The position numbers and the translations under genes were made by a program. Below are positions 10,260 through 49,847 of a stretch of 64,000 nucleotides of DNA, in pieces. Every line of letters begins with the position of its first letter. Positions within the stretch are counted from its first letter, which is position 1. Below the pieces are notes generated by a model. The model saw only the letters and a list, made by a program, of their open reading frames with translations. It ran no database searches and was not told the DNA's origin. The DNA comes from a virus (lineage: Duplodnaviria; Caudoviricetes), in IMG/VR virus record IMGVR_UViG_3300021426_000067, one strand, 5' to 3'.

Positions 10260-13200
10260 ATGGCACAAGCATCAGGCGAAATTAAATATACGATTGGATT
10301 TGATGTCCAAAAACAAAGTTTAAATGATTTAAAGGCTTCATTAGAAAGCATACGTAAAATGACGTATGGCGATTTTATGAAGATTAATAATTCAAGTATA
10401 AAAGAAGCCAGAAAAGATTTTGCTGAAGTTTAGAAAACTATTAAAGTTGTTGAAACAGCTATGGAAAGTGCATTTAATAAAAAATTAAATACAGTTAACA
10501 TAGATGCTTTTAATAGTAAATTAAAACAGAATTAGTTGACTCTTTAGCAAGTATATACAACTTTTAGTAAAGCTGGTGCAAGAGGATAGGCTTCTTTTAG
10601 AAATTTAACAACAAGTTTATTAAGTGTTAATACTGAATTAAGAAAATCACATGAATTTTTAGATAAAGTTGCAAATACATTTGCAAATACAATAAAGTGG
10701 ACCATTTCATCTTCTATTGTTAATAATTTCTCTCGTTCAATCCAAGAAGCATGGGGATATACAAAAGCATTAGATTCTTCTTTAAATGATATTAGAATTG
10801 TTACTGGTAATTCAGCAAATGAAATGGCAAGATTTGCGGTTTAGGCTAATGAGACTGCAAAAGCTCTTGGTAAAACTACAACTGATTATACTAACGCGGC
10901 TTTAATCTATGCTCAACAGGGTTTAAGTGATGAAGAAATTGCAAAAAGAACCGAAATAACTTTAAAGACTGCTAATGTTACTGGGCAATCTACGGATAAA
11001 GTATCTGAAGAATTAACTGCAGTTTGGAATGGTTATAAAGTAAATGCAGATGAAGCTGAAGTTTATGTAGATAGATTAGCGGCTGTTGCGGCAACAACCG
11101 CTTCTGACCTTCAAGAACTTAGTACTGCGATGAGTAAGGTCGCGAGCGCCGCAAATGCGATGGGTGTTAGTGAAGAACAGCTTGCCGCGCAATTATCAAC
11201 TATTATTTCCGCTACTCGTCAAGCACCAGAATCAGTTGGTACTGCCTTAAGAACTGTTTATGCACGTATTTCAGATATACAGGCCGGAATTGATGAAGAA
11301 GGGGTTTCTCTTGGTAACTATTCTGGAAAGATGGCAGAATTAGGTTTCAACGTTCTTGATATGAATGGTAAACTTCGTGATATGGGCGAAGTTATGGAAG
11401 AAATTGGTAATCGTTGGGGCGATTTAACTCGTGAACAACAAATTTCTCTTGCACAAACTATGGCTGGTCAAAGACAATATTCAAATTTAATTGCATTATT
11501 TGATAATTTTGAACAATATAATAAATCTTTGACTACAGCTCAAAATGCAGCTGGCACACTACAAGAACAACAAGATATATATATGGATAGTATGGCAGCG
11601 CATTTAAAGCAATTAAAAGCATCTACTGAAGGTATTTTTAATAGTTTATTTGATGAGTAGGCAACGGATGGAATAAAAGATTTAGTAGATGGATTGTCTG
11701 GTGTTGCTGATTTAATAGCCCAAGTTACTCAAGGATTAGGCGGTGGAATTGGAGTTTTACAGACTTTAGGAACAGTTGCTCTTCAAGTTTTTCAAACTCA
11801 ATTAGCGCGAGGTTTAGCAATTTCAATAGAAAATTTTCAAGCCGCAGAAAGAAATGCTTAGGCTTTAAAACAATCTATTCAAGCAGCAGCAGATATTTCA
11901 GCTTAGTTAGAAAAAAGACGTTCTGCAGATCCTTTTAATGCAAATTTAGATTATACTAAAGATATAGTTGATAAATATCAATTTTTCGGAGATAATTCTC
12001 GTTTATTGACACAAGAAGAATTTTCGCAAGCTCAACAACTTTTACAGAAGCAAGGAGATATTAGCGGAAAAATATTAATTAATGATGAGGATATTGAAGC
12101 AATTGAAAGAGCCAGAATAGCTGTTTATTAGTTAATGGAAAGTGAATAGCGTTTTAGTAGTAGTGATGAAGTAGAAAAACATCTTTAGAAGCAAAAAGTA
12201 TCCCTTTTTGGAGTCCAAAAAGAATTAAAAAATTTTGCATCAACTTGGAAAGATTTTAGTAATGCTTTAGAACAAGGAAATACTAATGATATTAATACTT
12301 ATTTTGGACAATTACAAACAATATTAACTAACTTAAAGACAAAAGTTGGTGCGGGAGGAATTTTTCAAGATATTCCAGATGCAGCAAAAAAAGCTATATA
12401 TGCAGCACAACTTGAATTTAATAAAATTGATTTAAGTGGTTCTGCAGACAGTATTAAAGAACAAACTTTAGCAATTTTTGGAAATTTATCTGCAGGAGTA
12501 AAAACATCAATAGCAGAAATTAATGCTGAAATGGAAGTTATTAAAGGCACAGATTAGGCAAAATATAAAGAATTACTTCAACGAAGACAAGAATTAGAAA
12601 AATTATTAGCAGACATTTAGAAAGATAGACAAGCTCTTGTAAATACTACTTAGAATAGAATTAACACAGAAAGTTTAGTCAAAACAGTTGGTGGAGTTGC
12701 AAGTTTAGCAAGAGGAATAGCTCAAACAGGTCAAATAGTAAAAACTTTTTTTAATGACAATTTGACAGCAGGAGAAAAATTTACACAAATAATTACTGGA
12801 TTATCTTTTGCTATTCCAATGTTGACAAAGGGATTTCAACAAGCTAAAGAAGCGGCAGTTACATTTTTTGGAGTAAGTTAGGCGATGGCAGGACCTGTTA
12901 TAATAGCCATTACAGCGATAATAGCGGTTTTTACTGCAATCTCTGAATATCAAAAACAAATATATTAGAATGAAATTAAAGCCTATGATGCCGCTATTGA
13001 AACTAACAGAGCAATTCGATAGGAAGCTGAATCTTATGAAGGTTTATATGATGCATTAGAGAAATTAAATGAATAGCAACAAGATCATATTATGACAAGA
13101 CATTAGTTAAGAACTAAAATTGAAGAATTAATTAATGAATATGGTCTTGAAGGAGAAGCTGCTGAAAAACTTCGTAAAAATTATACAGATTTAAAACAAG

Positions 13201-16200
13201 GTATCATTTAGGCTCGTCAGTAGGCAGCAAAAACAGAATTTAATGCTGCTCAAGAGGAATTTAATGCTGCTGGTGGTAAATTCAATAAAATGGCTGATCA
13301 TTATACTGATTCAAACTTATTTGAAGGTGGACATCAGAGAGTATTTACTGGAAGAATGTCTGAAAGTGGAGATAGAGATATAGCAGATAAACTTTCTCAA
13401 ATTCAAGGGATAGAATCAAGTATAGACGGAAGCGGAATTATATCTCTTGAACTTAAAATGAGTGATTCTGTTTATGAGCGTTTTAAACAAATTGAAGAGA
13501 TAAAAACAAAAATAAATGAATTAGAAAGTGAAGCTACAACAAGTGAGGAAAAAACTGCTTTATATAACAGTCCTCTATATACTCAACTTAATGGTTTCTT
13601 AACTAAATTATAGGAAGGAACAGCAGATTATAAAACTTCTTTAGAAGCTATATAGCAAGCTACTGTAAATACTGTATTAGTAAATATTCCTGATTTTATG
13701 AATAATTCTATTTAGGGCGTAAATAATTATTTAATTAACAGAGCAGAAGCTATCAAACAAGTAGAATAGGAATTAAAATAGCAAGGAATAGAACAAGAGG
13801 GATTAGCAGCAGAATTAGTTGATAAACAGTTATCTTCTAAATTTGGAGAATTATATGCGGATTATGGTAAGGCTGGAAAATTTATTGATGAATTAACTGA
13901 AAAATTTGGAAAAGATACTGATAAAATTCAACAAGAATTAGATAAATTAAACCCAAATCAATTGGAATATTTAATTCAATTACTTGATTTAAATCCTTCT
14001 ATTGGGAAGACTTGGGAAGATATATTATCTCTTATTGATAAGGTTTCCAAAAAAGAAGTTTCTGATTTGGCGATTAATCCAGATAATTTATCGGCTTTTC
14101 AAGAAATGGCTTCTTAGAAATATAGTTCTTTACAATAGGTTGAAGATAAAGTTAAAAGTGGAAAAAATTTAACTAAAACTGAATTTCAAAATTTAGGTTC
14201 TTTAGCTCCTGATTTAACAGATTATTTTAAACAAGCAATAAATGGAACATATGAATTAAAAGAATCTGCTCAAGAATTTTATAATGCGATTGATAAAGAA
14301 AAAGTTGCTGATTTTGGAACTGCTTTAAGTACTGCTTATGACCAAATTGATAAAATAAAAACTTTAAAAGCAACTGGGGTGGATTATGAAGATGTAATGC
14401 AAAAAAATTATTAGTCAGTACAGTCTATCCCTGGAGGACCTGATCAGGCTATTGGAATTAATGATGAATTAGTTCAAAAGCAATTAGATTATTTATAGGC
14501 GGTTGATGCAACCAATAAAGAATCTGTTGATATGTGGAGATAGCAAATTCAAGAAGGTAGAGCAACTAAGGAAACTTATGATGAAATTTATCAAGCATTA
14601 GAAAGAGTAAAAGATCTTGGTGACCTTAATGACGCTTTAGGGGAAAATGAGAAAACAGCCAGATAGTTAGAACAAGCTATTCATGATGCTATGTTTCCTC
14701 TTGATGAAGATGTTGATTCAAAAGCACTTCAATCTTTAACTGATACAATTCAAGGAATGGCTGATTCTTCAGCTGAATTAGCAGATATTTTAGAAGAAGA
14801 TAAACGAGCAGCTGAAGATGTGTCAGAGTCTATTTTAAGATTTGACGATGCTATTCAAAATGTCGTAGATAGTTATGATGATTGGATGGGAGCGTTAACA
14901 AGTGGTGCTGTGGGAGAGCAATCTGAAGCAATAGATGGATTACGAGATGCTTATGCTGATTTATTAGATATGGATGCTTCTGCTTTACCTGAAAGTTTTT
15001 TACAAAGTGCTGAAAATCTTTAGTTGATGAAAGCTGCTATTGATGGTAGTGAAGAGGCTTATAATCAACTTCTTGAAAATGCTGCTCAAGCTATTTTATT
15101 AGATGTAGGATTAGATACTGATCAATTTTATAGTGACAGAGATAATATTCAAACTGCTATGGAGTATTTAACAGGACAGGAGTTTGATGATATCGAAGTT
15201 GGAGCTGAATTAAATGATGCTAATTTTTTAGCTGGTTTAGAGAATATTGTTAATGCGTCTGGGATGACCGCTCAACAGGCAACAGACTATCTTGCTGCTA
15301 TGGGCGTAGATGCAGAAGTTATAGAAGATACCAGCCGAGTTAGAGACATCCATCAATATACCGGTGCGAAACCAACCATTGAAGATAATCCTTTCCTTGG
15401 TACTGATCCTGCAACTGGAGCGCCAATGACATATCATTTCCCTACAGTGACTTATGAAACCGTTCCTTCTTAGGGTGAAGATATAAAAGAAAATTCTGCT
15501 TTTGCCTTAAAAGTAACTGCTGCTCATAAATCTTCTGGTGGTGGTTTTAAATTTAGAAATGCTGCAAATGGTGGTGGTTCTAAAGGTCAACAACGTAGAG
15601 CTGGTTCCGGTAAAAAAGGCGGCGGAGGTAAGAAAGGTGGAGGCGGGAAAGGCAAATCCGCACAACCAGATACCTCTAAAAAAGATAAGAAAAAGGAGAT
15701 GGAAGATTAGCGAGATATTTACCATGATATTAATATTGAATTAGAGCAAATTAATAGATAGCTTGAAAGAACATAGAAAGTTCAATAGAGATTGTATGGT
15801 AAAGATCTTATTGATAATTTAAATAAACAAACCGCAATCTTAGAAGCTCATAAAAAGAAACTTAAAGAAAAACAAGAACTTCAAAAAGAAGATTTAAAGA
15901 ATCAACAAAAAAATCTTAAAAATCTCGGCGTTATGTTTGATGAGTATGGTAATATTGCCAATTATATGAGTGTTCTTGGTAATAAACAACTTGAGATTAA
16001 TGCCAGAACAAAAGATTATAATGCTTTAATTGAACAATATAATAAATCAACTAATAAAGATGCTAAAAAAGCTATTGCTGACCAAGCTGAAGCTATAAAT
16101 AAAGAAATTAAAAAAGCGGAAGACGAATATAAAGACCTTGAAAAGAAAATTAAAAACTATGATAAACTTCGTGAAGATATGGAAGATTTAGTTGATGAGA

Positions 16201-18731
16201 TTGAAGAAGAAACTCAAAAGCAAATTGAATTAAATATTAAGAAGTTTAGAATGGAACTTGAAATCAGATTAGATATGGGATAGGCTGAACGAGATTGGAA
16301 TAAGTTCCGCAGAGAAGTCCTTGAAGGCACTGATGTTCTTAAAGGTACTGAATTTGAGAAGATTTTTAAGGACGCCGCAAAAGACGCTACAGATTTAAAT
16401 TCTTATTTTGATGTTCACGGAAGCAAAGGAACTATATAGACTCTTACTGATCAACTATTAGCTACAAAAGCGCAGATTGACGCTATTAATGCCACTGGTA
16501 CATCTGATATTTATGGTGACAATAAAGCGCAAGCTATGTAGGATTTACAGAATGATCTTAAAGAATTAATGGATCAAATGGAAGAAGTTGAAGAGTTAAT
16601 TAATAATATTGATGAAGCATATCTTGACACTATTGATGATGTTCAAGACCAATTTGATAAACAAATTGAAGATTATGAATATATTAATGATTTAATTGAA
16701 TCTAATATGGATTTATTAGAAATTATGTATGGTGAAAAGAATTATAATGCTATGCAAAATTATTATGATATGTTACAAAGAAATAATATAAGACAACTTG
16801 ATTCATTAAAACAACAGAGACAATTCTGGAAAGAACAATGGGATGCGGCAGTTGCTCGTGGAGACACGAACGCCGCAGAGAAATTTAAAGAAAATTATAA
16901 GGAAACTATCAAAAATCTTAATTCTTTAATTCAAGAATCTGCAGAAACTTTACAAGATAAGTATGTTAATGCTATTGATAAAATATTTGATGAATTAGAT
17001 AAGAAATTATCTAATGGTCATGGAACTGATTATTTAAATACACAATGGTAGTTAATGAATAAAAATGCAGACGAATATCTTGATACTATTAATACCGCAT
17101 TTGCTATTCAAGAGACTGAAGATAAATTTAGAAAAGCATTAGATGATACTAAGAGTATTAAAAATCAACAAGCCTTAAAGAAATTAATGAATGAACAACT
17201 TGATATTTTAAAGAATAAATAGAAAGTTACTCAATATGATATTGATAGGGCGGAGAAGCTGTTAGAAGTAGAAAGAGCCAGAATCGCACTTGAAGAAGCG
17301 CAATCCGCAAAAACTTCTTTAAGATTAAAGAGAGACTCTCAAGGTAATTATTCTTATGAGTATGCGGCAGATAGTGGTTCTGTAGATGATGCTCGTTCTA
17401 ATTTAGCACAGGCTCAAAATGATTTATATAATTTCGATAAAGAGCGTTATCAATCTAATTTGAATGATATGCTTCAGGCTTGGAAAGATTTCCAAAATGA
17501 TTATAAAGATATATTAACTGATACTGCTTTAACTGAACAAGAGAGAGTTGAAAGACTTGCTTTATTAAGAGACGAATATGGTCAATATATCAATGATAAA
17601 ACTGAAGAAAATCTTAATATTAGAAATAATTTAAGAGAGTCTGCATTTGCCGATATAGCTGCATTATATAATACAGATGTTGCTAATTATAATCAAATGT
17701 CTCAAGATGAGCAAAATATTCTTATGGGAGATTTGGTTCCAGCATGGCAAAGTGGTATTCAAGAGATGTCAGATGCGGTTGCTGGTGAAGGTGGATTTAT
17801 CCCTACCTGTGAAGAAGCATTTGAAGATATTGAAGAACAGACTCGTTCTTACCAAGATTCATTACAAGAATTAGCGGATGCTGCAGGTATCAATCTTGAG
17901 GATATTAGAAATGGTGTTTCTAATTTAATAGATGAATTTGAAGTATTAGTAGAAGAAAATGATGATATTCTTAATCGCATGAGAGATTAGATGTTTGCTA
18001 TTGAATCTTTAAAAAATCAAGCACAACAACTTGTTGGAGAATATAATAATGTTTATCAAGCAGCTGCTAATGCGGTTATTCAATTACATAATTTCGTACA
18101 AGCTGAACAAGCTGCTGCCGCCGCATATCAAGCTACTGCCGCGTCATATGAAAATATGATTCGTAGGATGCAAGCTGCTAACGCCGCCTATGCGAGAAAT
18201 CCATATGGAGGAGGCATCTCTGGAGATAGCAGTTCTGGCGGTGGAAGTAGTTCCGGTGGTGGAGGAGGAAACGGATCCGGAGGAAGTGGATCTGGAAGTT
18301 CATCAGGAAGAAGTAGTAATTCCGCTTCTGGAAATAGGGGCGGTTATGCTTATTATACAGGTAGCACAGGTAAGGTTACTTATACAGGGCATTATAGATA
18401 TGCTTCTGGTGGATATACTGGAGACTGGGGGAGTGATGACCCCAAATTAGCTTGGGTTGATAGAAAAGAGTTAGTATTAAATAAAGATGATACTAAAAAC
18501 TTCTTAGAAGGAACTTATATTCTAAGAGAAATTTCTGCTTCATTAGAAGGTTCTTTAAGTAATCGAATGAACAATATTGGTATTAGATCTGTTAATTCTA
18601 AGGATAAAGATGAAATTCAACAAAATGTGCATATAGATGCTACATTCCCTAATGTAGATAGTAAACGTGAAATCGAAGAAGCACTTAGTGATTTAGTTAA
18701 TCTTGCCGCACAAAGAGTATTACATAGATAA
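10260..18731 (+). CDS. Tape measure protein, 2823 aa with TAG readthrough
   Basis: ORF-track fragments at 11130, 13290, 14691, 15024, 15792, 16569, 17460 and 17991 share the frame of ATG 10260 and are broken at TAG; TP901-type core (LNDIRIVTG, PESVGTALRTVYARI, AGQRQYSNLIALFDN); long coiled coil; YASGGYTG C-terminus. Confidence 0.9.
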
Positions 18732-18732
18732 A

Positions 18733-18765: not shown

Positions 18766-18776
18766 AAGGAGAAAAT

Positions 18777-19052: not shown

Positions 19053-22000
19053 ATGAGTATAAGTGAAAAAGTTTTAGATGCTATTTAGATATTAGCAGAT
19101 AATTCTGTAAAAAAAGCAGATTACGATAGAACAATTCAAGCTCAGATACTTTCATGTGAAGATGCAACGATTGGTAAATATAGATGTCGTTATCAAGACG
19201 CAGTTTTCTATGCTTATTCAAATAATACGGATATTACGTATAGTAATGGCGCATTGGTTTATATATTAGTGCCAGGTAATGATTTTAAGAAGGAAAAAAC
19301 AATTCTTGGTACAACTAAAAAATTAGGAATTAATTATATTACTCAGGCGGAAGGCGATTAGGCTTATGATATAATTGGAACTAATGGGATAGAAAATAGT
19401 CAAACTTTTTATTTAGATACAAATTATGAATATGAGTATTCTATATATGAAGCAGAAGGCGAAAAAAGTATTGAATTAGATACCCAAGCCATAGAAAAAT
19501 ATATAAAAGAATCTTCATCTATTATTGTCGGAGCTGCTATAAAAACTTCAATAAAAGCTGAAAGACAATTAAGAGGACATTATGGTATTGTTTATAATTT
19601 AAAATTTATAGATAATGCTACTGGAAAAGAAACTATTCGTTCATATACAATAGATGAAGATAATATGGTTGGAAATCCTTATAGATTATTATATCCTATT
19701 AGACAATACCAAATTTTTGACGTTGATGGTCCGAATTTTGTAAGAGTTGAATCTATTAAAATTTTTTGTAAGAGTTTCCCAGATAGTGTTCCTTTAGAAA
19801 ATAACACTGAACTTCATCCAGATATTGAAATTAGTCAGTTATAGTTAAATGGCGCTTGCCGCATGTCAGAAAGTTAGATTAATGGGATTGCAATTTCTTT
19901 TTATACTCCACAAGGAACTTTCTTTCCACCGGGGACAAAAGGCGGCAATAAGCTGATCACCGCACAAGTTAGGGTAAAAGGAAAATTAGTTTCAGCAGAT
20001 CAAAAGATTCCTTTCTATTGGGGAAAAGAAAATGTAGGAGTAACTCCAAGTAATCCTTATTATAATAAATACTTAGGACGTGGTTGGAAATGTATTAATA
20101 GTAAACAAGAATTAGATAGTGAAACTTTTGAATGGATTTCTGGTAAAAATACATATGTTATTAATTTTGGAGAAGCTACCGCAAAAGATAACTGGTTAAA
20201 AGTTGCTATTGTATATGATGGTAATGTTATTAGTAAAAAAATTAATATTCAAAATTTAACAGATAAAATTTATCCAATAATTGAATCAAATGATGGAACT
20301 AAATTTTATTATGATGTTGGACATCCAACTTTGACCGTAAAAATTATGTAGAAAAAAGACGGTGTAATAAAATAGATTGAAGATATAAGTCAATTTCAAT
20401 ATTATTGGGCATATGAAGATAATACAGGGAATCTCGTTGAATTGCCTTAGATTTTTGGAACAGAAAGCCCTAATTATAAATATAATAAAGCTGTAAATGA
20501 TTTAAATGATTTAACCAATGATATTCAAAAAAATTATAATGCTGAAAATATTAGAGTATTAAATGAAACTCTTAAACAATATGATTTTATTCAAAGAGTT
20601 TAGGGGAATCAAATTCATGATGTTCAAATTAGAAACATAACTTCATTTGGTACTTTTAAATGCTCTGTTTTTTCAGGAGAATTATACATTGGAACCGCCC
20701 AAATTACTTTAACAAATACTTTAGATGGAGAAGGATTATATTCTCTTGTTATTAATAATGGTTCTGCGGTTTATCAATATAATGAAAATGGAGTCGCTCC
20801 TAATAATAAAACTTTAGATAATCCTCAACAGATTCCTGCACTTACATTTACTGTATATGATAATCAAGGAAAACCGCTTGATTCAAATATGATTGTAAAT
20901 GATAGTAAGTGTAAAGTTAGATGGAAAATTCCTTTAGGAAATGATACTTTATTAGTTGATAATATGCTTAAGACTCCTAATGATCCAAATCGTATTGAAA
21001 CTGAATCATATGTATATTATGATAAGGTCGAAACTTTATCTTATGGAATTGCTAATAAATATGATATTAAAAAGCAAAATAATCAGATTTAGCTTACTGT
21101 TGATTATAAAGGATTAAATTTAACAGCGAGAACTAACTTTACTTTTGCTAAACAAGGTGAACCAGGAACTAACGGTACTGAATATGTTGTTAAAATTGTT
21201 CCAAATACTACAATGGATAATCCGCCATTATGGCCGATGATTACTAAGAAAGAAGGTGCCGGATATTAGATAAATTATGGTATAAATAGTTCTGCACCTA
21301 TTTCTGAAATAAATGAAGGTGTAGATAAAAAATTATTTAAAGCTCAACTTTGGCAAGATGGAGAAGAAATTTGGGAAGGTATTTCCAACGATGATGAATA
21401 TAAAAATTTAAAAGTAGATCTTATTCATTGGGAAGTTTTAAAAAATATATATAATAAAAGTAATAATATTAATATAGAAGATTTTTCTGCTTTTCAGATA
21501 CCTTCATAGGGGGATATTCAATTATCTCAATGGGAAGGAAATTTGAAAACACCTGAAGCTAATATTATTAAATGTAGTATTACTTATGGCGGACAAGGTA
21601 AAACTTACTATGGGACTATTCCTATAATAACCGCGTGGGTTAAACAAGAAAAAAATGAAAAGAATGAATATAAAGAGAAATATAGAATTGGATTAAGAAA
21701 TTTTACTGGTTTTAGACATGTGTTATATACTTCTGATGGCATAAATCCTCAATATGATAATTCTCATCCTTTTGAATTTTATTGTGAAGAATTAATTAAA
21801 AAAGAAGGTACAGAAATTTAGACTTGGGAAGACGTTTCTAATGTTTAGGGTAGTCATCAAATAACTTATAAATTTTTTGCAATAGGAAATTATCAAAGTT
21901 ATGATGAAACATATACTTCAACTAATGCAAACTTATTAACTATATTAGGAGAGGCTTACAGAAAAGGGCTAACTCCAAATCAATGCCCTGCTCGTCCAGC

Positions 22001-23929: not shown

Positions 23930-24136
23930 ATGAATGAAAAAATTTCAATAAATTTAGCTACACAAAATTTTAAAGAAAAATTAATAGAAGATATATAGAA
24001 TAGTGGATTACCTGCAGTAGTTATTATGTTAATTTGGCAATCTATGTTAAGAGATATAGAAAGTGCATATTATTCTTCTCTTAATATTGAAATGGCTTAG
24101 CAAAAACAAAAAGATTTTAAAGAAGAGGAAATATGA
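23930..24136 (+). CDS. Small hypothetical protein (2 TAG)
   Basis: GGAGG RBS; I*NSGLP motif; TGA overlaps the next ATG. Confidence 0.6.
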
Positions 24137-24621
24137 AAATTTTATCGTTAGATTTATCTACGAAAAGTAGCGGCTATGCAGTTTCTTAGGACTAGACCTT
24201 GGAATCTTATGGCTGCATAACCGCAACTTCAAGAGATGTAATACAAAGAATAATAAAAATGCGGAATTAGCTATCTCAAATTATTAAAGATAATAACGTA
24301 AAAAAGATATTGATGGAAGAAGTGCGACCTGATTATAATATTCATACAAGTAAAGTGTTAATGTGGTTACAGGCGGCGGTTGTTATCGCCGCCCATGAAC
24401 TGGACCCAACAATTTAGTATGAATTTATTAACACTAATTAGTGGCGGGCCGCCCTGAACATTAAACAAGGACGAGGTATACGAAGATAGCAACTGAAACC
24501 GCAAGATATTAAATATGTTTAGGATAAATATCATATAACAGTAAATGATGATATAGCAGACGCTATTTGTATATTAGATGCTTATCATACAAAAATAAAT
24601 AATTAGATTAATTGGTAGTAA
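24133..24621 (+). CDS. RuvC-like Holliday junction resolvase (9 in-frame TAG)
   Basis: MKILSLDLSTKSSGYAV, MEEV, N*WR, NDDIADAICI catalytic motifs; absent from the ORF track because of TAGs. Confidence 0.85.
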
Positions 24622-25903: not shown

Positions 25904-26157
25904 TATGAAAAAAGAAGAAAAATATTTTATTCCGAGAGGAACCACAGCAAATTATAAATGAGATAATTATTAAGAATTAATAAATATCATAAAGCAAAAA
26001 TATTTAAAAAATTTTTGTCAAAAGTGATTAATTCATTTGCCGCATTTTTTATATATAAATGGAAGGTAAAAGATAATATCTTTTATTTTCTAATATGTGC
26101 ATATTTGTAACTATTAACAAAAATTTTTTCTGGTATACCATAGGAGGTCATAGAGTA

Positions 26158-26622: not shown

Positions 26623-26630
26623 GGGGGTAA

Positions 26631-26867: not shown

Positions 26868-26916
26868 AAAGGAATGGTAGTTTCCTTGGAAAGCACAAAA
26901 AGAAGGGGTATAAAAT

Positions 26917-27693: not shown

Positions 27694-27709
27694 TTAAGGA
27701 GGATTGCTT

Positions 27710-28165: not shown

Positions 28166-28175
28166 GGAGGTTAAA

Positions 28176-39197: not shown

Positions 39198-39199
39198 GC

Positions 39200-39562
39200 T
39201 TATTTGTATTGATAATCAATATATACATTACTATCTGTTGGTTCAAGAAATTTTATTGAAACAATATGCACATCTTCTAATTCTAACATTCTTGTTTTTC
39301 CAATTTGAAATATTATAGGATTATCATTAGCATTTTCTTTTATTGCTACATGAGCATATTTATCTGGATCTGAGGGAGGCCAATAAACTCCATTTAAATC
39401 AAAATTAAAGTTCCCAGGATAATGAATTCCTATTTTAGTAATATAGTTTATAGGATTCTTACACTGAGCTTGAATACGTGAAACAACATCTTCTGTAGTT
39501 TCAAAAGCACCTCCCTAAAAAGGCCCTTGAATCTGACCAAAGAATCCATTAGTTGCCGCCAT
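39200..39562 (-). CDS. Small virion-associated protein (1 TAG), paralog of 9947-10228
   Basis: GAGGAGG RBS; GQIQGPF*GG...KIGIH...QIGKTRMLELED...IDYQY. Confidence 0.72.
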
Positions 39563-39580: not shown

Positions 39581-42500
39581 TTATTTAGGTTGAATATTAA
39601 AACTTAAAGAACCAAATTCAATAGAAACTTCTGCATTTCCTGTTGGACTATTAGGATATGCAGATTTAGTAAATTTTTTCTTTCCACCTGATGTAGTCCA
39701 TGAGCCATGATAAATTTGAAGACTATATCCAAAAGGAGTCATCCATCCATTCACTTGTTTGTCGGCAGTAGCTGTATCTTGTACGGGATCAGCTTGCCCC
39801 CAAGAGTTATCGCTTCCTGCCAAATATTTACCATTTTGACGAACTTTATAATTAACTCCTCTTACAGTTATTGAAAATTTACTTGTATCTATTGGATTTT
39901 GAAAATGAATAGTACAATATACCATATTTTTATCATCATTTAAAAATCCATTTACTACAAAATTCCCTTCTAACTTAGGATTAGCTTGTGTTAAAAATGG
40001 ATGTATATTATTATTGATAATATTTGCCCAATCTGAATTGTCTGATTCAAGAATTTTTGACCAACGAGAATTATTTGATTCAAGAATATTAATCCAACGA
40101 GAATCATTTGGAAATTGAACCATATAATTCCAATTTGACCATTCTGAATTATAATAATATCGAGTTGCAATTTTACCATTTCTACTAATAGCAATTTGAA
40201 CGCAATTGTTAGCACTTGTTGTAGAACCCGCGTCAAAAATTGAACAAACAATTAATTTAAAATAAATATTAAATGGAGCATTTGCTATTGTTTGTGTTAC
40301 AGTTTGTCCATTATTTGTCCATGACATAGTTCCACCAGTGGCATAATAAGTGCCTGGAATTTTATAGTTATCTAAAGATACTAATATATTGTTTACGGCT
40401 TTATCAAAATCATAAGTAATTTTCTAACCAGGAGAAGCTAATACTAATCCTTTTTTAGTAATACCTTCTCCCATAACGCGAATATTAATACCGTCAGAAA
40501 TAATATAAGCATCATCTCTATCAATATTTTCTCCAATAATAATTGCATCTGTTGCATTTATTAAATGTTGCATTGTTTCACTTGAACTATACTCATTAAG
40601 ATTTGTATCATTTCGACCTATCACAAAAGCAACTTTTGGATTAATTTTTTCTAAATAATTAGGGTCTGTATGATTTGTATAAGTGTGGTGTTCAAGTTTA
40701 TAAATGTCTGGAGTTTTAGTAATTGAATTTGCGATTTGCGCCTGTGCGGCAGGTTCAATATCTCCTGGAGATAAAAAAGTAATATCTCCATGTTTAAATT
40801 CAGTTACTAAAGAAAAGTTATTATATCTTGTTCCCTGATTTATTTTTTCATTATAAGAAGTTACATTATAGTAGTGACTAAATTTTGAACTACAATTTAA
40901 AAATCTTACTGAAAAATGAGGATTATTAATAGCATCAAATACAAAAGTTTGTTCTTCAACAGGATAAGTAATTAAATCTTCATTTTTAAAATACATATTA
41001 AGATTGCCTGAAGTTGACTGTTTAATAGCATTAATCCAACTAATAAGATTATCATGTTGCTCTTTTATTCTACTATATTTATCCATCTCTTCTTCAGTTC
41101 CATCAATAAATTGATTTTGAGTTGGTAAGGTTGGTAAAAAGAATTTACAATTATTTTTGAAGAGATGCTATACATTTTCTGGGTTTAACAAGGTCTAAAA
41201 TCCGCCTACATGATCTATATGATAATGACTAACAATAACATGAGAAATAGGTGTAATTTGATTATTATCAATAGCTTGTTGAATTTTTGGTATTACATTT
41301 TCGATAAAACCTTTATTTGAAGCATCTACTAAAATAGTTGTTTGACCACAAGATACAATAAAACAATCTCCTTTAGTTTTAAAATTAGAATAATCAGGGT
41401 CTAATTGATTTGTTCCTTTAAAAGGTAAATAAATTTTCATCTAAGGAAGATTAAGTGTATCAATACTATTTTCAATTTGATTTAATCTTTCTTGCCAATC
41501 TATCTGTGCAGTTGCAGGGCGTTCATTTAAAGAAAAATTTAAAAGAATTGGGTCTACTACCTACACTAAAACAGGAATAGGTTTAGTAAAAGATTCCTCA
41601 TAAACGCTAAAGTTATGTGTTGATAAATCCTAAGTATCATCTAAAATATTAAATGTTATTCCAAATAATCCTGTTTCTACTGTTTTTGAAATACGTTCTT
41701 CATTTAAATTTAACCCATTTTCAGGAGTAACTTCTGCTTCATTTCTATAAACTTTAATTTTTCCTCTCATTATATTAGCATCTATTACTAATTTAGAAAT
41801 TAATTGAGTAGGAGATGCGGTAAAAGTTAACATTCCATTTGATATAATTCCAGAAGCATGATATCCATTATTAATAGTTGCTGAATCTTCATTTAAATTA
41901 AAAAGTTCAGTTCCAAAAGTACCTATCCAACGCCATTGATCTCTTTCATTAAAAGTAATATTGTCAGTACTTGCGGGTGGATCAAAATGCATTAAGAAAT
42001 TTCCAGATCCGTCTACCGCCACTCCATCAATAGAAGTTAAAGGATTAGGAGTTATAATTTGAGGTTTCTCATCTCCTTCCCATTGTACTTCTATTTTTTT
42101 ATCTGCATTTAAATTTATAGAAATTGGTCTTTTAAAGAAATTTTCAAAAATATCAATAACAGGATTATTGTTATTATTACTATCTTTTAAATTGTAAGTA
42201 ATAACTAAATTAGTTCCTTGTTTTTCTATATCTTTAATCCATTTTATAGGATTGTTTTCATTTAAAATTTGAGGATTTTCATTGTCATTCCATTTAAGGG
42301 AAAATAATCCTGTATCATTATTTAAAGTTGCAGAATCAATCCAACGTAGCTGAAGTCCGTTTTGACTGGTAATTTTTCTACCTGTGCTAAGTGTAGTTGT
42401 TATATTACCCTCTTGATCTATATCAACAGTTTCTATCCAACCGAATAAGTTAGATTCTTGAGGTAAAGCATTTGTAAAATTTACTTTTATTTTATTAGTT

Positions 42501-43645
42501 TGTGAATCAACTTCAATATTTCGAATAGAATTTAAATAAAATTTTTCAGTTTCATTTACAATCTGACTTCCGCTATCAGTATCTTGTTCAATTAAAGTAT
42601 TATATTTAACTGTAACTTCACCAGTCTATTTGTTAAAAGATATATCATCTATCCATCTTATAGGGGTTGAATTAATTTGTTCTATATTATTATCATTCCA
42701 TTGAGTTTGTAAAAGACCCTCATTAGAAAGAGTCATATCTTTAACCCATTTTATTTTTGTATCAGGGTTTATTACAATCGGACCATCATGAAGATAAGTA
42801 ATTCTTATAGAACCATCTTCCTAAAGACTAATATTTTCAATCATATTATAATCGCCAAGATATATTTTTTTAGATTCTCCTTCTTCTGAATTATCATAAT
42901 TATGATATTCATAAATTAAAATTTGTCGATGATTTTCACGATCTTCACGTTGTTTATTGTCTCCATAAGGTTCTACCCCATCATTTTCATCTGCTGTAAT
43001 AACTTGTAAATTTTTAAAACTATCTCCTTTAATACCATTTGGTATATCTAATTGCCATTTTTCATAAAAAGGATGTGAACCATCGTCAATTCGATTAGCT
43101 GCAATATCAACGTAAGGATCTACTTTCTTAAGTGTAAAATCTATTACAGGATATGGAAAGGTAAATCCAATATAAGCTATTGTATTAGTTTTTGTTTCAG
43201 CATCTCTTAAGGAGCAGCAGTGCCAAGAAATTTCATCATGAAAATCATTTCCCTATTTACCTGGAACTAAACTATGATTAGTTAAAGTATAAGAACCATT
43301 ACTAAATCTTGTATCGAATCCCTGATTATCTTTATATTGTTGATATTTTTGTTCAACATCCGCCTCAGTTGTCATCTAAACTTCAGGAGAACCTCCAGCA
43401 GGACCAACAATTGTTCCTATATATTCCGCGCCACCCTGACTGTTTGTATATTCATAACCGCGACGATAAATTTTACCATTATCTTCGCTATTTTTATCTT
43501 GTGTATTAATTATAACATATTCATCATAATGCACATCAGTATAGTTTGGTCCTTTTTTAAAATCATCGACCATATCCTGCACAGTTGGAAAATTCTTAAT
43601 TATGATGAATGAGTTACCTGGTCTTCCGCCATAAAAAGAATACAT
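39581..43645 (-). CDS. Large structural protein with internal MBL-fold hydrolase domain, 1354 aa with TAG readthrough
   Basis: Fragments 43376, 41630, 41195, 40424 and 39581 share one frame; MYSFYGGRPG start; SHYHIDH, PGD and LEHH motifs; WSNW fibre-type motif near the C-terminus. Confidence 0.78.
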
Positions 43646-43647
43646 AT

Positions 43648-44337
43648 TTAATCCTCCTCTTGAGTATATTCAAAATCTAAAATAAAATAATCAATTAAAC
43701 TTCTGGGCACAAACCCAATATAAGTAATTTTAATTTTATTATTATTAAGTTCATAAATTCCATTTTTACCTAATCGAATTTGTTCTCTATTAATACAAGT
43801 TAATAAAGAGGGTGGACCTTGGATACCTATTTTAGTTAAATATCTTACATTTGAATTATTGGCGGTTAAACGTCCCATTATATTAATTAATTGAGCAAAT
43901 TCTTTAATTTCGATTTGAATTTGTCTTGAAGTTTTTCTATAGTCATCCGTAGTTCTTTGTAATTCCCAAACAATTTGATTATAACTATTATTTGGGGCGA
44001 TTATAATTTCTAAAGGTACGGTTTCTTCATCCCCTGCACCTATTTCAAATATTTCAATTAATTGTTCATTGTCTTCTGTTGCTTGTGTATCTCGTAATTT
44101 TAAACGAATAATTTGAATATTATCTACATTTTTCTTAATATTAAAACGAATATAATAACAATTAGTATTATTCATCGTTAAATTACCTTTTAGATTTAAA
44201 CAAGGATTTGTGAAAACAACATCATTAACGGCAACAGTAGTTGTAGATTGCGTTCCTATTTCATAATTTGTATTTTCTTCAAAAGGAATAAAATATTGTT
44301 CCTATGTAGAACGTCTATATTGCCCAATTTTATACAT
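43648..44337 (-). CDS. Putative structural protein (1 TAG)
   Basis: AAGGAG RBS, ATG 44337; C-terminal KIGIQGPP..IRLGKNGIYEL..ILDFEY. Confidence 0.72.
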
Positions 44338-44357
44338 AATCTCCTTTTTCCTCCTTA

Positions 44358-46412
44358 TTAAATTCTTTCTAATGCTTTCACGCAAGATAAACTCATTGTA
44401 CCATCAGTGCCTAATGGTAATGAAATTGAGTTAATCATATAGTCTCCATATATACCTACTTCTAAATTTCTAACAGTAATTCTTACATTCGGTTCTAAAT
44501 AATAAATTGGTATCACTGTTAAAGAAATTTGTTCATTATAGCTGGTGTATTGGTAAAGTTCTTTTCTCATTTCTTCATAAGCAGATCTTAAAACTCCTCC
44601 ATTAGCTAACATAGAATAGGTATCAGGGTCCATTTGAACAAATTCTTGTTTCATATGGATACACTGCTATCTTAACTATGCGACATCTTCATCATCAGTA
44701 TTTATGATAACAATATCTGGATTATCTGGTTCAAATATGCAATTAATTGAGTCATCTACTAAAGTAGTCGTTCTACGACCTATATTATTTACGCTAAATT
44801 CTGAAATTGAACTTGGAGTATCTATAAAATCTAAAAAGAAATCTATATCGCTCGGTTCGGTAATAACATCACCATAAAATTCTTTTTTAGATATATCATA
44901 TAATTTAGGCCACTCATTCTTAAGTTCAGTAAAATAATAATTACTTGTTAATCCTAAGGGTTCACTCGCCACTCCTGATAAATATAACTAAGTTCTATAA
45001 TCAGTTGATTCTACTGAAGTTAATTCATAATTAGTCTCTTCGTATTCATTTTTAACTGGATTCCATTTATAAATAGTTTTAGTTTCGTCTGCATAATAAT
45101 ATTGATCAAATAATCCCGGCACTGGAAAGTCATCTTTTGTTAAAAATTTAATAGGCGCTTTAGCTGCGGGTTTCATAATTCCATTTTCTGGATCAGTATA
45201 AAAAAATATATCAGTATAAACATTTCCAGTTTGAGGTTTTTCATCAATAGCTAAATGATATCTAATAGGAATTTCTTGTCCATCTATTGAAATCCTTTTT
45301 CCCCATATCATAAAATCATTTTTTATTTGCTGATACTGTGGAGCATTGGTGTAAGACTGAATTATATCAGCGCCCTAAAAAGTATATACTGACTTGCCGC
45401 CCGCATAATCAACTAAATAATTGTCGGCATTTATCTAATTAATTTTAAAAGTTGAATATGAAGTATTTAAATAATTCTTTATCTATTGGAATCTAAAATT
45501 TCCTTCTATATCATAGAAATATTCATAATTTCCTAAAGTATCTTTAATTTGATCTAAAATGGTAACTACTGTATCTCCCGCGTTTCCTATTAATTCTCCA
45601 GGATAAGTAAAATCAGTAAGTATATATCCCACATCTTGCCCATAATTAAAACTTGTAAGATTTTTTTCTATTTCTTCTTGAGTTTTATTTTTAGTAAGTT
45701 CATTATAATTAGTTGAATAACGATAATAAATATTATTATTTTCATTATCAAATTCTTGATATAAATAGATAGGAATAGAACCAGTCCATTTCATTACTTT
45801 TTTAATGCGGTTATCTATATCACTAATAATAATTTTCCCAAGTTGCTAACCGCCAAAATGATTTACTAATTCTTGAATAATTTGATAAATAGTTGGTTCA
45901 ATAATAATTCTATCACCATTTACATCTACATCCTACATTTCATGGAATACTACTGATGCGGGGAGGACTCCTCCGCACTATCCATTTAATAAAGCCATTT
46001 TATCATGTAAAGTTAATGAAATATTAATTCCACTTGAATTATAAGTTATATTAGGAGTTACGATAACATATACACCTTGGGGAAACCATAAAATAGGAAA
46101 TTCTTTATATTCATCTGTTGTATTAGTAAAACCTACTAATAATTCAACTTTTTTATTTATACTTAATAAATGTTTTGTGTCAGTTAGATCATTCTAATAA
46201 GGGTCTGCTACTAAACTAATGTTACCTGTTCTCCGCATACTGGAAGAACCATCTAATGAAAGATTGCCGCCCGTAGCTTTTCCTTGTATCTATTGAATAG
46301 GTTGCTAATCAAAAGTTAGAACGATTAATTTAATAAATTGCTATTTTAATTTAATTTTATCAAAGTTTTTAAGAAAGACGGAATCTTTTAAATATGGAAA
46401 ATTATGTTTCAT
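44358..46412 (-). CDS. Putative baseplate/tail protein (DUF5048-like), 684 aa with many TAG
   Basis: Four ORF fragments in frame; IQGKATGGNLSLDGSSSMRRT, DKMALLNG*CGG, ELVNHFGG*Q, PIYYLEPNVRI. Confidence 0.78.
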
Positions 46413-46413
46413 A

Positions 46414-49287
46414 TTAATAGACCCCCTTTACAACTTGACAAGTATAATTAACAATAGCATTAATTGGATGTAACATTTCTCCAGTTCCATGTTCTCCAAC
46501 AAAGAAAGGATACCAAGCATTATGATAATAAATATATTTATTTGAATTTAAAAATTTTTCTTCAATAATTAAAATAAATTTATCATCAGTCTATTCAACA
46601 TGTTCTTCATCCATTAATAAAATAGGATTAAATCCAGCTCCTATGTCATTTTCATCAATTTCTAAAACTGTTTTAGTAATTTGATAGACTCCATTAGGCA
46701 TTGGATTTTCTACTTCATAAAAATTACTATATTCGCCTGCCATAATGGTATATTCTCCTTCTTGAGTTGCGGTAGTATCAGAAGTATCTTGCTTTTGTCT
46801 TAAAAGTATTCCTGAAAAATATAAATCTGTGATTGCCGCATCTTCGTCTCTTAATTGAAGGTATCCATTCTATAAAACATGTCTATCAAAATCATCATCT
46901 TTAGAGTCTTTTATATAGACTATTGTACCAGGCGGCGCTTCAATATCAATCCCATCAACATCAACTAAGTATTGATAAGAAGCATTATATATTTCTCTAT
47001 ATTTATTATAGATTTTTTTCATTAAAGAATCTTGAGGATTAAAAGTTCCATATAATTGTCCTGGTTTATAATAATTATAAGTAGTTTTAGCTACTTTTGA
47101 AACGTCCTCTTTTTCTTCTAATTTTACTACATAATCAATAGTAGCAGTTACAGGGTATTTAAATTTCAAACTGGTAATATAAGTATTATCTTCTTTTAAT
47201 TCAAAATATCCTAAATTTATAATCTAATATGCTGTTTCATCTATATTAGATCTTTTTCTTTCCATTTTAGGGGTAATAAGCATTTCAACCCCATTAATTT
47301 CTACTACATATCCCATTAAACGTCTTAGTGTAGTAGGGGTTGATGCAGTTATTTGAACTAATTGATTTCCCTGCTCAACAACAACATATGGAGCTGATTC
47401 AAAAGTTAATTTTAATGAAGTTAATCCTTTTACTTCATTTAAATAACCTTCATTAGCAGAACTACTATATTTATTTGTTAAAATAGTATTTAAAATGTTT
47501 CCATCTTCAGGTTTAAAATTTTTTTGAACTTGACCTAATAATTCATGAGTATATGTAACCTATGCCTAATATTTTCCTACTGTTTGAATACCATATTTTT
47601 CACAGTTGCGGACAGTTACTTCATCTATTTCTACAGCGGTTGCAGTAAAAGAATATAATTTTCTACCTAAAGATTCAACAGGTTGAAAATCAATATTCAT
47701 CAGTTTAATTAAAATATTACCTTCTGCCGCAGACCTAAATAATTTTATATTATGTTTATATAAAAATTCATAAACCTTGTCTCTAAACTATTTTTCATAA
47801 ATAAAATCATAGTAATCTGAGATTCCATTCTATTGATTATATGTATCATATAAAGATTTACTTTCTTTATAAATTTCTCTTTTAGAAGTAAATAATTTTA
47901 ATTCATTTTCTGAGTTATGAAATTGTCCATCATAAAAATGAGGATCATACCAGTTTGTGGTATCTGATAGAAAAGAAATTAATCCACCAATAGGAAAAGT
48001 TCTAAAGTAATTGTTTCCATTTCTATTGATATATGGATATTTAGCACCAATAGTAACTTGTTGAGATTCTGTAACATTATATTTAAATTCATTTAAAGAA
48101 GGATTAAATTTAATACATAATTGTTCATTTTCTCTTGTTAAGAAAATATCTTCAAATTCACATATTGCAAAATTTGAAAATATAGTTTGTCCGCGGGCGC
48201 CATATGTATTTCGTCTATGAGCGCAGTAGCGATACCAGACTCCACTTTCGATTGTAAAATCTTGCCACTATAAATCTAATGTTTCTTCATTTATATATAC
48301 TATTGTTTTAACATCTTCCCATTTCTTAAAGTCACTTTTAGAAGAAGTTCTTCTAATAGTTAAGTTTCCCATAAACCCTTGACCTTCTGTTTTGGACTTT
48401 ATATTAATTACCATTGTTCCATTTTCTTTATTTGGAGAAGCGGTAATATCTGCATTTAATGGGTCAGCGCCTTCATCTATTATTATAAATTGATATTTTT
48501 TAGTTTCTGTGTATAGATTATTTGTGGTGTATTTAAATTTCATTATATAATGTACACCTTCTACGAAATCATATAATACCTAATAATTAATTTCGTTTGG
48601 ATTATGCGGATTCGTATAAATCTAATCACTTTCCCAAAGGGGTGTTTCAGGATCCTAATTATTATACAGTTTTATTTGATAACTTTTTAAACATTCTTTA
48701 TCATTAGGATCTGCAAAAACGACTGAACCAATAATATCAGTTAAAGATGTTGACAAGGTAGTTTCTTGGAAATCAGCATTTAAATCTCTATTATCATCAA
48801 GACCTTTTAAAACAAGGGTTGGACTTGATATTGCTTTTACTAAACAAACTTTAGACCATTCTGAAAAGTTATCTTGATTTTCTTTTAACCAAACCGCATC
48901 ACCTTTTTCTGAATTATAGCTCTCTTTACAAAATCTTAATTGAGCTTTATAAAATTGATTTAATCCAAAAAAAGTCTAATTTGATCCATCATTTTTTAAA
49001 TCTGATAAATTTATTGAAACAAAATATTTATAATCATTAGTTGAATCATTAATAGTTGCTTCTTCCCAAGAAACATTCACAATTTTTGTCCCAGTTGGCC
49101 AGCTTTCAAGATTTAATACTGAAGCGTTTGTCTTTAAATCAATTAAAGATATTTGAACAGATTTTATATCACTACTTTTATTAAAAGAAGATAATCCAAA
49201 ATAAATATCACAACTTCCAGTATTTTTAAAGGCAGGCTGTGTATCATATACTATGGGAGGATAAAGATTATTAAATATATTACTCAT
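46414..49287 (-). CDS. Putative structural protein, 957 aa with many TAG
   Basis: Fragments 48976, 48268 and 46870 in frame; NNLYPP start; FSEWSKVCL and TIGAKYPY..RNG motifs. Confidence 0.75.
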
Positions 49288-49346
49288 TATAACAGCCTCC
49301 TTTTTTTCTATTTTTCATATATGTATCTCCTTTTTTCTCCTTAGCC

Positions 49347-49847
49347 TTATTTATAACTCATAACATCTTTTCCGCCTTCTTGCGGTGCTTGTTTAGGAAG
49401 GGCACGTAACTCTTCCATAAAACCCTATATAAAAGAATTTCCGCCTTCATCTGTATAATGTTGATAACGTCTTTCTAAACAATCAAGACTGAAATCATCA
49501 ATCCAACCTACATAATAGCAGAAATAGTGGTGATCTCTTGTAATATATGCTTTTATTGCATCTTTATCAGATTGAATAAGCATATCAATTTTGTCTGATA
49601 ATTTACATAAAACGTCATCAGTTACCTGTTGATCTTTTTGTAGAGATTCCATTATGGTACTTCCTTGACGAAGACGTCTTTCTAATTCTTCTTTTGAATT
49701 TATTTTTGAATATTCTTTATCGAAAAATTTTCTTATATAAGTATACCCCCAATCAAAGAAAGTAAGTAAACTCTTTACCGCTAAGGCTAAAAAAACAATA
49801 AAAATAAGAATTTCCTATAAAGAATAATGTTCAAGTAATTCTACCAT
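49347..49847 (-). CDS. Membrane protein (holin-like), 2 TAG
   Basis: GGAGG RBS; N-terminal TM segment, coiled coil, Y..EGGNSFI* motif. Confidence 0.68.

Follow-up and report, generated by a model that had tools for sequence, protein, structure and literature searches.

Glutamate as the probable meaning of TAG in the late genes of a rumen phage that encodes its own tRNA(CUA)

The late genes of the phage analyzed here appear to use TAG as a sense codon for glutamate, with TAA and TGA as the sole remaining stops and a tRNA(CUA) of the phage itself as the likely decoder, a joint reading to which we assign a probability of about 0.85 from comparison of the genome with its relatives. The window, by which we mean the whole stretch of 64,000 nucleotides that was analyzed, is part of a ~130-145 kb phage of the sheep and cattle gut, that is, a rumen phage (Table 1). 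Its kin include Phass-1 and Enterococcus phages of 140 kb, which makes a host among the Bacillota probable.

Table 1. Recoded late genes, TAG-free genes and tRNA genes of the window.
Feature	Position	Strand	Details
Replication genes	662..9731	-	TAG-free: NAD-dependent DNA ligase, GyrA, GyrB, RNase H, polynucleotide-kinase-like protein
Tail tape measure protein	10260..18731	+	2823 aa, 44 TAGs; reading frame interrupted unless TAG is sense; matches to PF10145 and several PHROG tape-measure families
Large virion or tail protein	19053..23921	+	1622 aa, 18 TAGs; without family match; 38 tblastn segments show conservation in relatives
RuvC-like Holliday junction resolvase	24133..24621	+	162 aa, 9 TAGs; phrog_827
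Seven smaller structural genes	24632..29023	+	0-2 TAGs each
Tail-spike-like protein	29070..32696	+	1208 aa, 2 TAGs; phrog_2234
Gene with in-frame tandem TAGTAG at 33163-33168	32746..33324	+	192 aa
Tail-fibre-like protein	33344..34885	+	1 TAG
Endolysin	37574..39148	+	GH25, CHAP and SH3 domains; 6 TAGs; PF01183, PF05257, PF08239
Small paralogue of 9896-10228	39200..39562	-	1 TAG, opposite Glu of paralogue
Tail protein with MBL-like domain	39581..43645	-	1354 aa, 10 TAGs
Structural gene	43648..44385	-	1 TAG
Conserved structural protein	44358..46412	-	684 aa, 13 TAGs; phrog_32343
Structural protein	46414..49287	-	957 aa, 12 TAGs
Last gene of recoded block	49347..49847	-	166 aa, 2 TAGs
Array of 30 tRNA genes	51707..60777	-	credible genes of the region nearly without TAG
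tRNA-Gln(UUG), contrast	52281..52355	-	U1-A72, G2-C71, G3-C70, G73
Amber suppressor tRNA, anticodon CUA	57357..57430	-	ARAGORN; Rfam RF00005, 62 bits, alignment fixes ends
tRNA-Glu(CUC) and tRNA-Glu(UUC)	57887..58035	-	~450 nt from suppressor
Phage sigma-70 family factor	59725..60615	-	TAG-free

Under translation table 11, region 10260-49847 falls into fragments, which become long open reading frames on both strands and resolve into 23 intact late genes once TAG is read through. These genes hold at least 128 in-frame TAGs (~130) in 12,719 codons, or 10.1 per 1000, and 97 in-frame GAGs beside them, which bears out the claim of the initial annotation that TAGs split otherwise continuous genes; the tandem TAGTAG it had reported is likewise in frame, as codons 140-141 of its gene. 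Outside the late region, only two in-frame TAGs were counted in 3,666 codons of larger genes, with none in ligase, GyrA, GyrB, RNase H, the sigma factor or other larger genes beyond the block. Use of TAG is specific to certain genes and, on both strands, to their coding frame. Composition is in keeping with this, Glu codons and TAG together making up 6.87% of late codons as against 7.23% for Glu codons outside the late block. As had also been proposed, true gene ends are TAA or TGA: 39 of the 41 standard-code reading frames outside the late region stop at one of the two, and the other two, which end in TAG, were rejected as spurious since both overlap tRNA genes. No credible gene in the window, early genes included, ends at TAG. 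TAA terminates most genes there, and within conserved alignments to relatives no in-frame TAA was seen beyond noise.

Which amino acid does TAG specify? We aligned the window's proteins, with X at each TAG, by tblastn to 57 related viral contigs that had been fetched with the 684-aa structural protein as query. At TAG columns the relatives had Glu in 723 of 1900 instances, Asp in 199 and Gln in 63, a profile (E 38.1, D 10.5, Q 3.3%) that matches what is seen at true Glu codons (E 40.1, D 12.9, Q 4.6%) but not at Gln codons (Q 34.4, E 10.1%). When the references were restricted to 18 standard-code relatives, the columns were again dominated by Glu (249 of 735, versus 32 for Gln), and Glu won 1999 of 2000 column bootstraps when each of 72 columns had one vote. 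Many TAG columns are variable, but TAG also occupies nearly invariant ones, with Glu in, for example, 50 of 57, 49 of 49 informative and 48 of 53 relatives; in gene 44358-46412, the columns of the TAGs at codons 36, 189 and 310 have Glu in 48-50 relatives. In the seven small structural genes the relatives mostly have Glu at TAG columns, and in the RuvC-like gene, where TAG accounts for 9 of the 14 Glu-type codons, the Glu positions assigned to TAG by the initial annotation fit when tested. The paralogue pair on which that annotation had relied to fix the amino acid does exist but is weak (25% identity, pairwise E 4e-5); the TAG in GQIQGPF-TAG-GG faces the Glu of GQVVGPFEAG. An identical pipeline called TAG as Gln in nine relatives and TGA as Trp in eight, which serve as positive controls, and called TAG as Glu in the window and 14 contigs, then in four further genomes. 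When codons rather than residues were compared inside the Glu clade, TAG stood opposite GAA (37%), TAG (10%), GAG (9%) and CAA (3%), resembling the GAG and GAA rows. Homology of this kind identifies the residue favoured by selection at TAG, not the residue inserted; the preference for Glu over Gln that had been proposed is nonetheless upheld by the match to the true Glu profile, by the bootstraps and by a Glu-type tRNA(CUA) in the same genome.

This tRNA folds into a canonical cloverleaf with C1-G72, G2.U71, C3-G70, A73 and U11-A24, a 5-bp anticodon stem, a 5-nt variable loop and a long D loop of 9 nt with extra bases after G18-G19. ARAGORN labels any CUA anticodon tRNA-Pyl, a tRNA whose fold has a 3-nt variable loop, a 6-bp anticodon stem and a very short D loop; we rejected that label on account of the standard cloverleaf, the anticodon stem, the D loop and an alignment to the general tRNA model over the full length. 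The suppressor has C1-G72, G2.U71, A73 and U11-A24 in common with the neighbouring tRNA-Glu(CUC) (57887-57958), from whose anticodon its own is one base away, and it follows the family tRNA-Glu pattern: a first pair of G/C or G.U type, A73 and, often, G2.U71. Family tRNA-Gln, by contrast, has an A/U-type first pair and G2-C71 in 15 of 15 cases and G73 in 12 of 15, and bacterial GatCAB tells its substrates apart by U1-A72 and by one additional base in the D loop (PMC2811023). None of these tRNA-Gln/GatCAB features (U1-A72 or A1-U72, G2-C71, G73, a short D loop) was found in the window's suppressor. Suppressor variants from Glu-coded relatives all lack an A/U first pair (16 of 16), and the 15 that could be cleanly parsed all lack G73 and have U11-A24, with G2.U71 in 11; the suppressor of L028, a second TAG=Glu lineage, is also of Glu type. 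In the suppressors found in two Gln-coded relatives the first pair is U1-A72 or G1.U72, and G73 occurs in one of them.

Measured against the identity set defined for E. coli GluRS, the agreement is partial. The suppressor has U11-A24, a GluRS determinant (PMC9976931), together with G13.A22 in place of the U13.G22 of the U13-G22..A46 triple, a residue 47 in its 5-nt variable loop where the set lacks one (the variable loop is 4 nt in relatives L058, L060, L070 and L123), and A at position 36 where the set has U34/C34-U35-C36, position 36 being a strong determinant for discriminating GluRS (PMC9976931). When three suppressor variants were compared by BLAST, over their whole sequence, with phage tRNAs of annotated isotype, the matches were a mixture of Glu, Asp, Gln, Asn, Trp and Tyr, and the nearest neighbours within the family are of mixed isotype too. 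For this reason we use Glu-type to describe acceptor and D-arm features only and make no claim of descent from tRNA-Glu.

How might such a code operate? We propose that in the late genes (tape measure, tail, baseplate, RuvC-like resolvase, endolysin) TAG stands for Glu and is decoded by the phage tRNA(CUA) with its glutamate-type body. Neither GluRS/GlnRS nor a class I release factor was found in five complete relatives, so charging is probably the work of a host enzyme, presumably GluRS. The attached Glu would then stay Glu, because the tRNA has neither the two features required by bacterial GatCAB, U1-A72 and a short D loop, nor the tRNA-Gln set U1-A72/G2-C71/G3-C70/G73. With no TAG in the replication genes or in the tRNA array, late and lysis genes would become fully translatable only once the suppressor had accumulated, as in the timing model put forward earlier for phages with TAG=Gln.

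Could the TAGs instead be GAGs garbled in sequencing or assembly, or could the genes be broken pseudogenes? A single base separates the two codons, yet we regard this as barely conceivable. GAG persists beside TAG in the late genes, the TAGs keep to one frame in particular genes on both strands, and a matching suppressor is encoded. The window sequence is present in runs of 11 studies. Contigs assembled independently from sheep and cattle, in other studies and other years, span the TAGs, with none of the 40 listed differences falling in a TAG codon. Relatives from many other samples have their own in-frame TAGs at Glu columns, with 65 TAG-to-TAG coincidences with the window. In a strain that is 97.8% identical, the RuvC gene differs by 11 bases, comprising nine synonymous changes, one T93A and one TAG to GAG (codon 103). 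It is also very improbable, and we disfavour the idea, that TAG means Gln (genetic code 15) as in crAss-like phages, Lak and Phass-1, with the Glu signal a by-product of TAG arising from GAG. All published amber-recoded phages have been assigned Gln (10.1101/2021.08.26.457843), as the initial annotation had stated, and gene callers translated this phage accordingly; against that, Glu exceeds Gln by 263 log units on raw counts and by 20 at one vote per column, the same method shows Gln in those relatives that truly have TAG=Gln, and CAA/CAG stand opposite TAG no more often than opposite GAA and GAG.

A subtler possibility is ambiguous decoding, in which a Glu-charged suppressor is partly converted or mischarged to yield a mixture of Glu and Gln and TAG is selected mainly at Glu sites that tolerate both. 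The anticodon CUA retains U35, common to Glu and Gln anticodons, the variable TAG columns noted above would suit such a mixture, and E. coli GlnRS is known to charge many amber suppressors (cited in 10.1101/2021.08.26.457843). We nevertheless consider it quite unlikely: TAG occupies nearly invariant Glu columns, the mean Gln share of TAG columns (0.066) equals that of true Glu columns (0.064), and the suppressor lacks every Gln-type acceptor feature of family tRNA-Gln. Somewhat less remote, though still unlikely, is that the host itself reads TAG as Glu, the phage merely matching its code and boosting supply with its tRNA(CUA). Phages with code 25 are believed to share that code with their hosts (10.1101/2021.08.26.457843), and the absence of credible early genes ending in TAG would be natural in such a host. 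But the near lack of TAG outside the late block is the split expected if TAG were unreadable early in infection, the phage-type suppressor pattern was found in none of 185,579 species genomes scanned, and sister lineages with the standard code, TAG=Gln or TGA=Trp resemble families on standard-code hosts (10.1101/2021.08.26.457843).

Glutamate inserted by the phage's own tRNA thus remains our preferred reading. The window belongs to a clade of 17 contigs that has good support and whose calls are, without exception, Glu or leaning Glu, with those sister lineages in the same family. Tentatively, and at odds short of even, we suggest that the family switches among four codes and that the choice between Gln and Glu is set by a few suppressor nucleotides (the 1-72 pair, 73 and D-loop length), that these would fix whether Glu-tRNA(CUA) enters the host GatCAB/GlnRS or stays Glu, and that an indirect Gln pathway in the host would bring TAG=Glu within easy and repeated reach, a code that appears to have arisen here at least once, perhaps twice. 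With members called as standard code, TGA=Trp, TAG=Gln and TAG=Glu side by side, the family is a natural system for studying how stop codons gain meanings. Amber recoding described so far in phages is always TAG=Gln, a pattern put down to how readily GlnRS charges amber suppressors, and a TAG=Glu lineage would represent a second route, presumably via GluRS. In practice, code 15 gene callers would place Gln instead of Glu at ~1% of late-protein residues, and public collections already contain proteins of this phage translated with TAG=Gln. The compact natural suppressor may also serve genetic-code engineering in Gram-positive bacteria.

Among known systems, UAG is read as Glu in the nuclear codes of peritrich ciliates (NCBI table 30) and Blastocrithidia (table 31), where UAR means Glu. 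There, UAA is also Glu and the whole nuclear genome is affected, whereas here TAG alone is recoded, in late genes, with a virus-borne decoder and TAA as the main stop. Our literature search found no paper on TAG=Glu in phages, in agreement with the initial annotation, and Borges et al. state that, in phages with a code unlike that of the host, they saw no reassignment other than TAG to Gln and TGA to Trp (10.1101/2021.08.26.457843). Their Agate phages, which measure ~127-154 kb, come from the gut of cattle and pigs and are either TGA-recoded or standard in code, are similar in genome size, habitat and the differing codes of close relatives; the family here includes TGA=Trp and standard-code members as Agate does, but no TAG=Glu members have been described for Agate. 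The amber-recoded code-15 phages comprise crAss-like, Lak, Garnet, Amethyst, Topaz and Phass-1 (10.1101/2021.08.26.457843; PMC9523058; PMC10607447), the last a distant relative with 32% identity over the 684-aa protein. Like them, the present phage has sense TAG mainly in structural and lysis genes with replication genes free of it, a tRNA(CUA) that usually comes without a phage synthetase, and a code that varies among close relatives. It differs from them in the residue, Glu, and in a suppressor whose acceptor and D-arm are of tRNA-Glu rather than tRNA-Gln type. With broken late genes, TAG-free early genes and a matching suppressor, it has all three features of stop-recoded phages with a temporal code switch.

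When TAG is read through, the many short ORFs that the standard bacterial code gives between 10260 and 49847 become 23 genes on both strands, as the initial annotation had proposed from in-frame TAGs splitting otherwise continuous genes, and the tandem TAGTAG it placed near 33163 is in frame at 33163. Its statement that genes end in TAA or TGA also held: no credible gene ends in TAG, and the only two standard-code ORFs outside this late block that do so both overlap tRNA genes. In-frame TAG occurs 128 times per 12,719 late codons versus 2 per 3,666 codons of the larger genes outside the block, which include those for NAD-ligase, GyrA, GyrB, RNase H and a sigma-70 factor; the early genes are TAG-free. 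Glu codons and TAG together make up 6.87% of late codons and Glu makes up 7.23% outside the late block. Several presumably abundant structural genes lack TAG altogether, and a TAG-rich ORF truncated by the left end of the window is probably part of a second TAG-rich module beyond that edge.

Features of the window and of related records
Feature	Coordinates	Strand	Observation
Truncated ORF	2-610	-	7 in-frame TAGs; no family match
Tail tape measure protein			2823 aa; 44 TAGs
Several large tail and baseplate proteins	late block		Among the 23 read-through genes
GH25-CHAP-SH3 endolysin	late block		6 TAGs
RuvC-like resolvase	24133-24621	+	9 TAG, 5 GAA, 0 GAG in 162 codons; highest TAG density
TAG-free structural genes	24632-25903, 26917-27693, 34899-35726
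MBL-fold metallo-hydrolase	36405-37574	+	TAG-free; CW_7 wall-binding repeats
Tail protein	39581-43645		MBL-like domain
684-aa protein	44358-46412		Used to fetch relatives and for the tree
514-aa protein	50102-51646	-	DUF2828, DUF7788, weak vWA match; adjoins tRNA array
tRNA, Leu anticodon CAA	56724-56799	-	76 nt; no long variable arm
tRNA(CUA), suppressor	57357-57430	-	Ends fixed; end-to-end match to Rfam tRNA model
tRNA, Leu anticodon UAG	58978-59053	-	76 nt; no long variable arm
UUA-anticodon tRNA of a TAG=Glu relative	L022:2389-2463, L068:14129-14203		Ochre-suppressor-like
CUA tRNA of a TAG=Gln relative (record of L024)	L091:316-414		Acceptor stem U1-A72, G2, G3
RuvC-like protein entry P0001	L101:54-542		Translated with TAG=Gln

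Other features of gene content were also seen. The MBL-like domain of the tail protein is related to that of the metallo-hydrolase, and some of the clusters resembling the latter bear the name of the anti-Pycsar nuclease Apyc1. Around the gene for the 514-aa protein G+C is 0.38-0.40 versus about 0.30. No GenBank phage was matched by Megablast with 20 kb of the window as query, and no solved structure by the sequences of the endolysin and the RuvC-like protein.

The residue encoded by TAG was read from homologous columns, for which every protein of the window was written with X for TAG and aligned by tblastn to 57 related viral contigs fetched with the 684-aa protein (identity 27-70%). Opposite TAG, Glu predominated among all relatives (E 723, D 199, S 154, T 141, N 128, K 115 and Q 63; n=1900), a profile that is close to the one opposite the window's true Glu codons and unlike that of its Gln codons, and several TAGs occupy almost invariant Glu columns. 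With the 18 relatives that have no in-frame stops as sole reference, 249 of 735 residues were Glu and 32 were Gln, which supports the initial annotation's reading of TAG as Glu and not Gln. Allowing each of 72 columns one vote, Glu was favored over Gln by 20 and over Asp by 27 log-likelihood units, and it was the best residue in 1999 of 2000 column bootstraps. We conclude that TAG occupies Glu positions as a sense codon.

The same picture is seen at the level of codons. Relatives of the Glu clade have GAA opposite 37% of the window's TAGs, TAG opposite 10%, GAG opposite 9% and CAA opposite only 3%, and the window's GAG and GAA codons align within this clade in the same way. In a contig from another run that is 97.8% identical over the RuvC gene, nine of the 11 base differences are synonymous, one gives T93A and one changes TAG to GAG at codon 103. 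The public protein collection gives a contaminated reference for the RuvC-like protein, because many close homologues in it belong to the same clade and, having been translated with TAG=Q, carry spurious Gln; even so, at five of the nine TAG columns Glu is still the most frequent. One such entry is P0001, the RuvC-like protein of the window phage, in which about 5% of residues are probably wrong; among the 120 homologues listed for it, many likewise have Gln in these columns, likely from the same mistranslation.

As a control, the in-frame stops of each contig itself were treated likewise, with the star alignment and the standard-code references unchanged. This called TAG=Gln in nine contigs, TGA=Trp in eight and TAG=Glu in the window and 14 others, and TAG=Glu was also called in four further genomes. 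Since all calls came from the same pipeline, Gln and Glu are separable within the window's own family, which among the 57 relatives thus spans four codes: standard, TGA=Trp (8), TAG=Gln (9) and TAG=Glu (the window and at least 14). In a quick maximum-likelihood tree (IQ-TREE) of the 684-aa protein the window falls within a clade of 17 rows (SH-aLRT 100), of which 13 are TAG=Glu and four have too few columns for a call. How a second Glu pair, L026 and L028, branches with respect to the lineages of standard, Gln or Trp code was not settled by the tree, and TAG=Glu may have had two origins, one in the main clade and one in this pair. In one TAG=Glu relative (L022/L068), whose aligned genes showed no TAA in frame, the UUA-anticodon tRNA lies about 1.3 kb from the amber suppressor.

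Could the TAGs instead be an artefact? Against this stand the 97 in-frame GAG codons in the late genes, the restriction of TAG to particular genes and, on both strands, to the frame that codes, and the relatives assembled from many other samples, which have TAGs of their own at Glu columns. The stretch is, moreover, present in runs of 11 sheep and cattle gut studies, the region is covered by long pieces of contigs from three studies independent of one another, and none of the 40 differences listed (267 in all) touches a TAG codon. Six TAGs are also unchanged in RNA-library contigs, which may themselves be contaminating DNA. A different alternative, that the host shares the TAG=Glu code, appears improbable to us.

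For TAG to be read as Glu by the phage a suppressor is at hand, as one of the 30 tRNA genes in the window has the anticodon CUA. ARAGORN labeled it tRNA-Pyl, a label that was given for the anticodon only and that we rejected in view of the Rfam match. All suppressor, Glu and Gln tRNAs of the family were parsed into cloverleaf positions.

Suppressor variants of Glu-coded genomes and family tRNA-Gln compared by cloverleaf position
Position	16 suppressor variants	15 tRNA-Gln
Pair 1-72	C1-G72, G1-C72 or G1.U72	A/U type in all
Pair 2-71	G2.U71 in 11	G2-C71 in all
73	A or C in 15 cleanly parsed	G in 12
Pair 11-24	U11-A24 in all 15 cleanly parsed	Mostly C11-G24
D loop	9 nt in nearly all, extra bases after two conserved Gs	Often 7 nt

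The suppressor features are common to the family's tRNA-Glu genes, and a tRNA-Glu(CUC) about 450 nt from the suppressor has the same C1-G72, G2.U71 and A73 and an anticodon one base from CUA. Judged by sequence, then, the features of tRNA(CUA) are of Glu type, not Gln type, and the second Glu lineage likewise encodes a suppressor of its own with these features. The suppressors of two Gln-coded relatives have U1-A72 or G1.U72, with G73 in one; L074/L075 also carries a Gln-like suppressor, with few TAG columns aligned in its genome. The CUA tRNA of the L024 record, whose acceptor stem is Gln-like, has an insertion of about 29 nt or a long arm in its variable region and adjoins two tRNA-Gln genes.

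We dropped the proposal that the suppressor descends from tRNA-Glu, as mixed isotypes came up both among its nearest neighbours in a MAFFT comparison of 197 tRNAs of the family and when three suppressor variants were searched by BLAST against annotated tRNAs of phages. A pattern derived from the suppressor matched only 16 viral contigs, nearly all of the Glu clade, and its D-arm and anticodon-arm pattern had no match in 185,579 species genomes, which gave neither a clue to the host nor a bacterial source. The family tRNA closest to the suppressor (66% identity) is the window's UAG-anticodon tRNA, and similar short UAG-anticodon tRNAs recur in relatives; a tRNA-Leu of 76 nt that lacks a long variable arm is unusual for the bacterial type.

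Five complete relatives encode no GluRS or GlnRS and no class I release factor, and we infer that a host GluRS would charge the suppressor with Glu. Three features of the suppressor count against this: the U13-G22 pair is missing, position 36 is not C, and residue 47 is present, although its lack is important to E. coli GluRS (PMC9976931). Bacterial GatCAB recognizes U1-A72, and the G1-C72 pair and extra D-loop base of tRNA-Glu cause it to be rejected (PMC2811023); GlnRS-type identity depends on the U1-A72 end (PMC9976931), so Glu would be expected to stay on the suppressor as Glu without being converted. The host may plausibly be one of the Bacillota that make Gln-tRNA by the indirect pathway, because cultured kin infect Enterococcus and the window's lysis proteins have Gram-positive wall-binding modules. 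If timing follows the published model for recoded phages, full-length late and lysis proteins would be made only after the suppressor becomes abundant (Borges et al., 10.1101/2021.08.26.457843).

Amber recoding in phages is well described, always as Gln, and in crAss-like phages TAG=Gln is reported to be backed by proteomics (PMC9523058). Where phage and host codes differ, no reassignment other than TAG to Gln or TGA to Trp has been observed (Borges et al., 10.1101/2021.08.26.457843). Our literature search turned up no description of TAG=Glu in phages, and the window phage is therefore a new variant, in which amber recoding is already known and the residue, Glu, is the new element. TAG=Gln has been assumed for Phass-1, a distant relative of the window phage, whereas TAG here probably stands for Glu. 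Some eukaryotic nuclear codes do read UAG as Glu, although in these UAA is reassigned as well.
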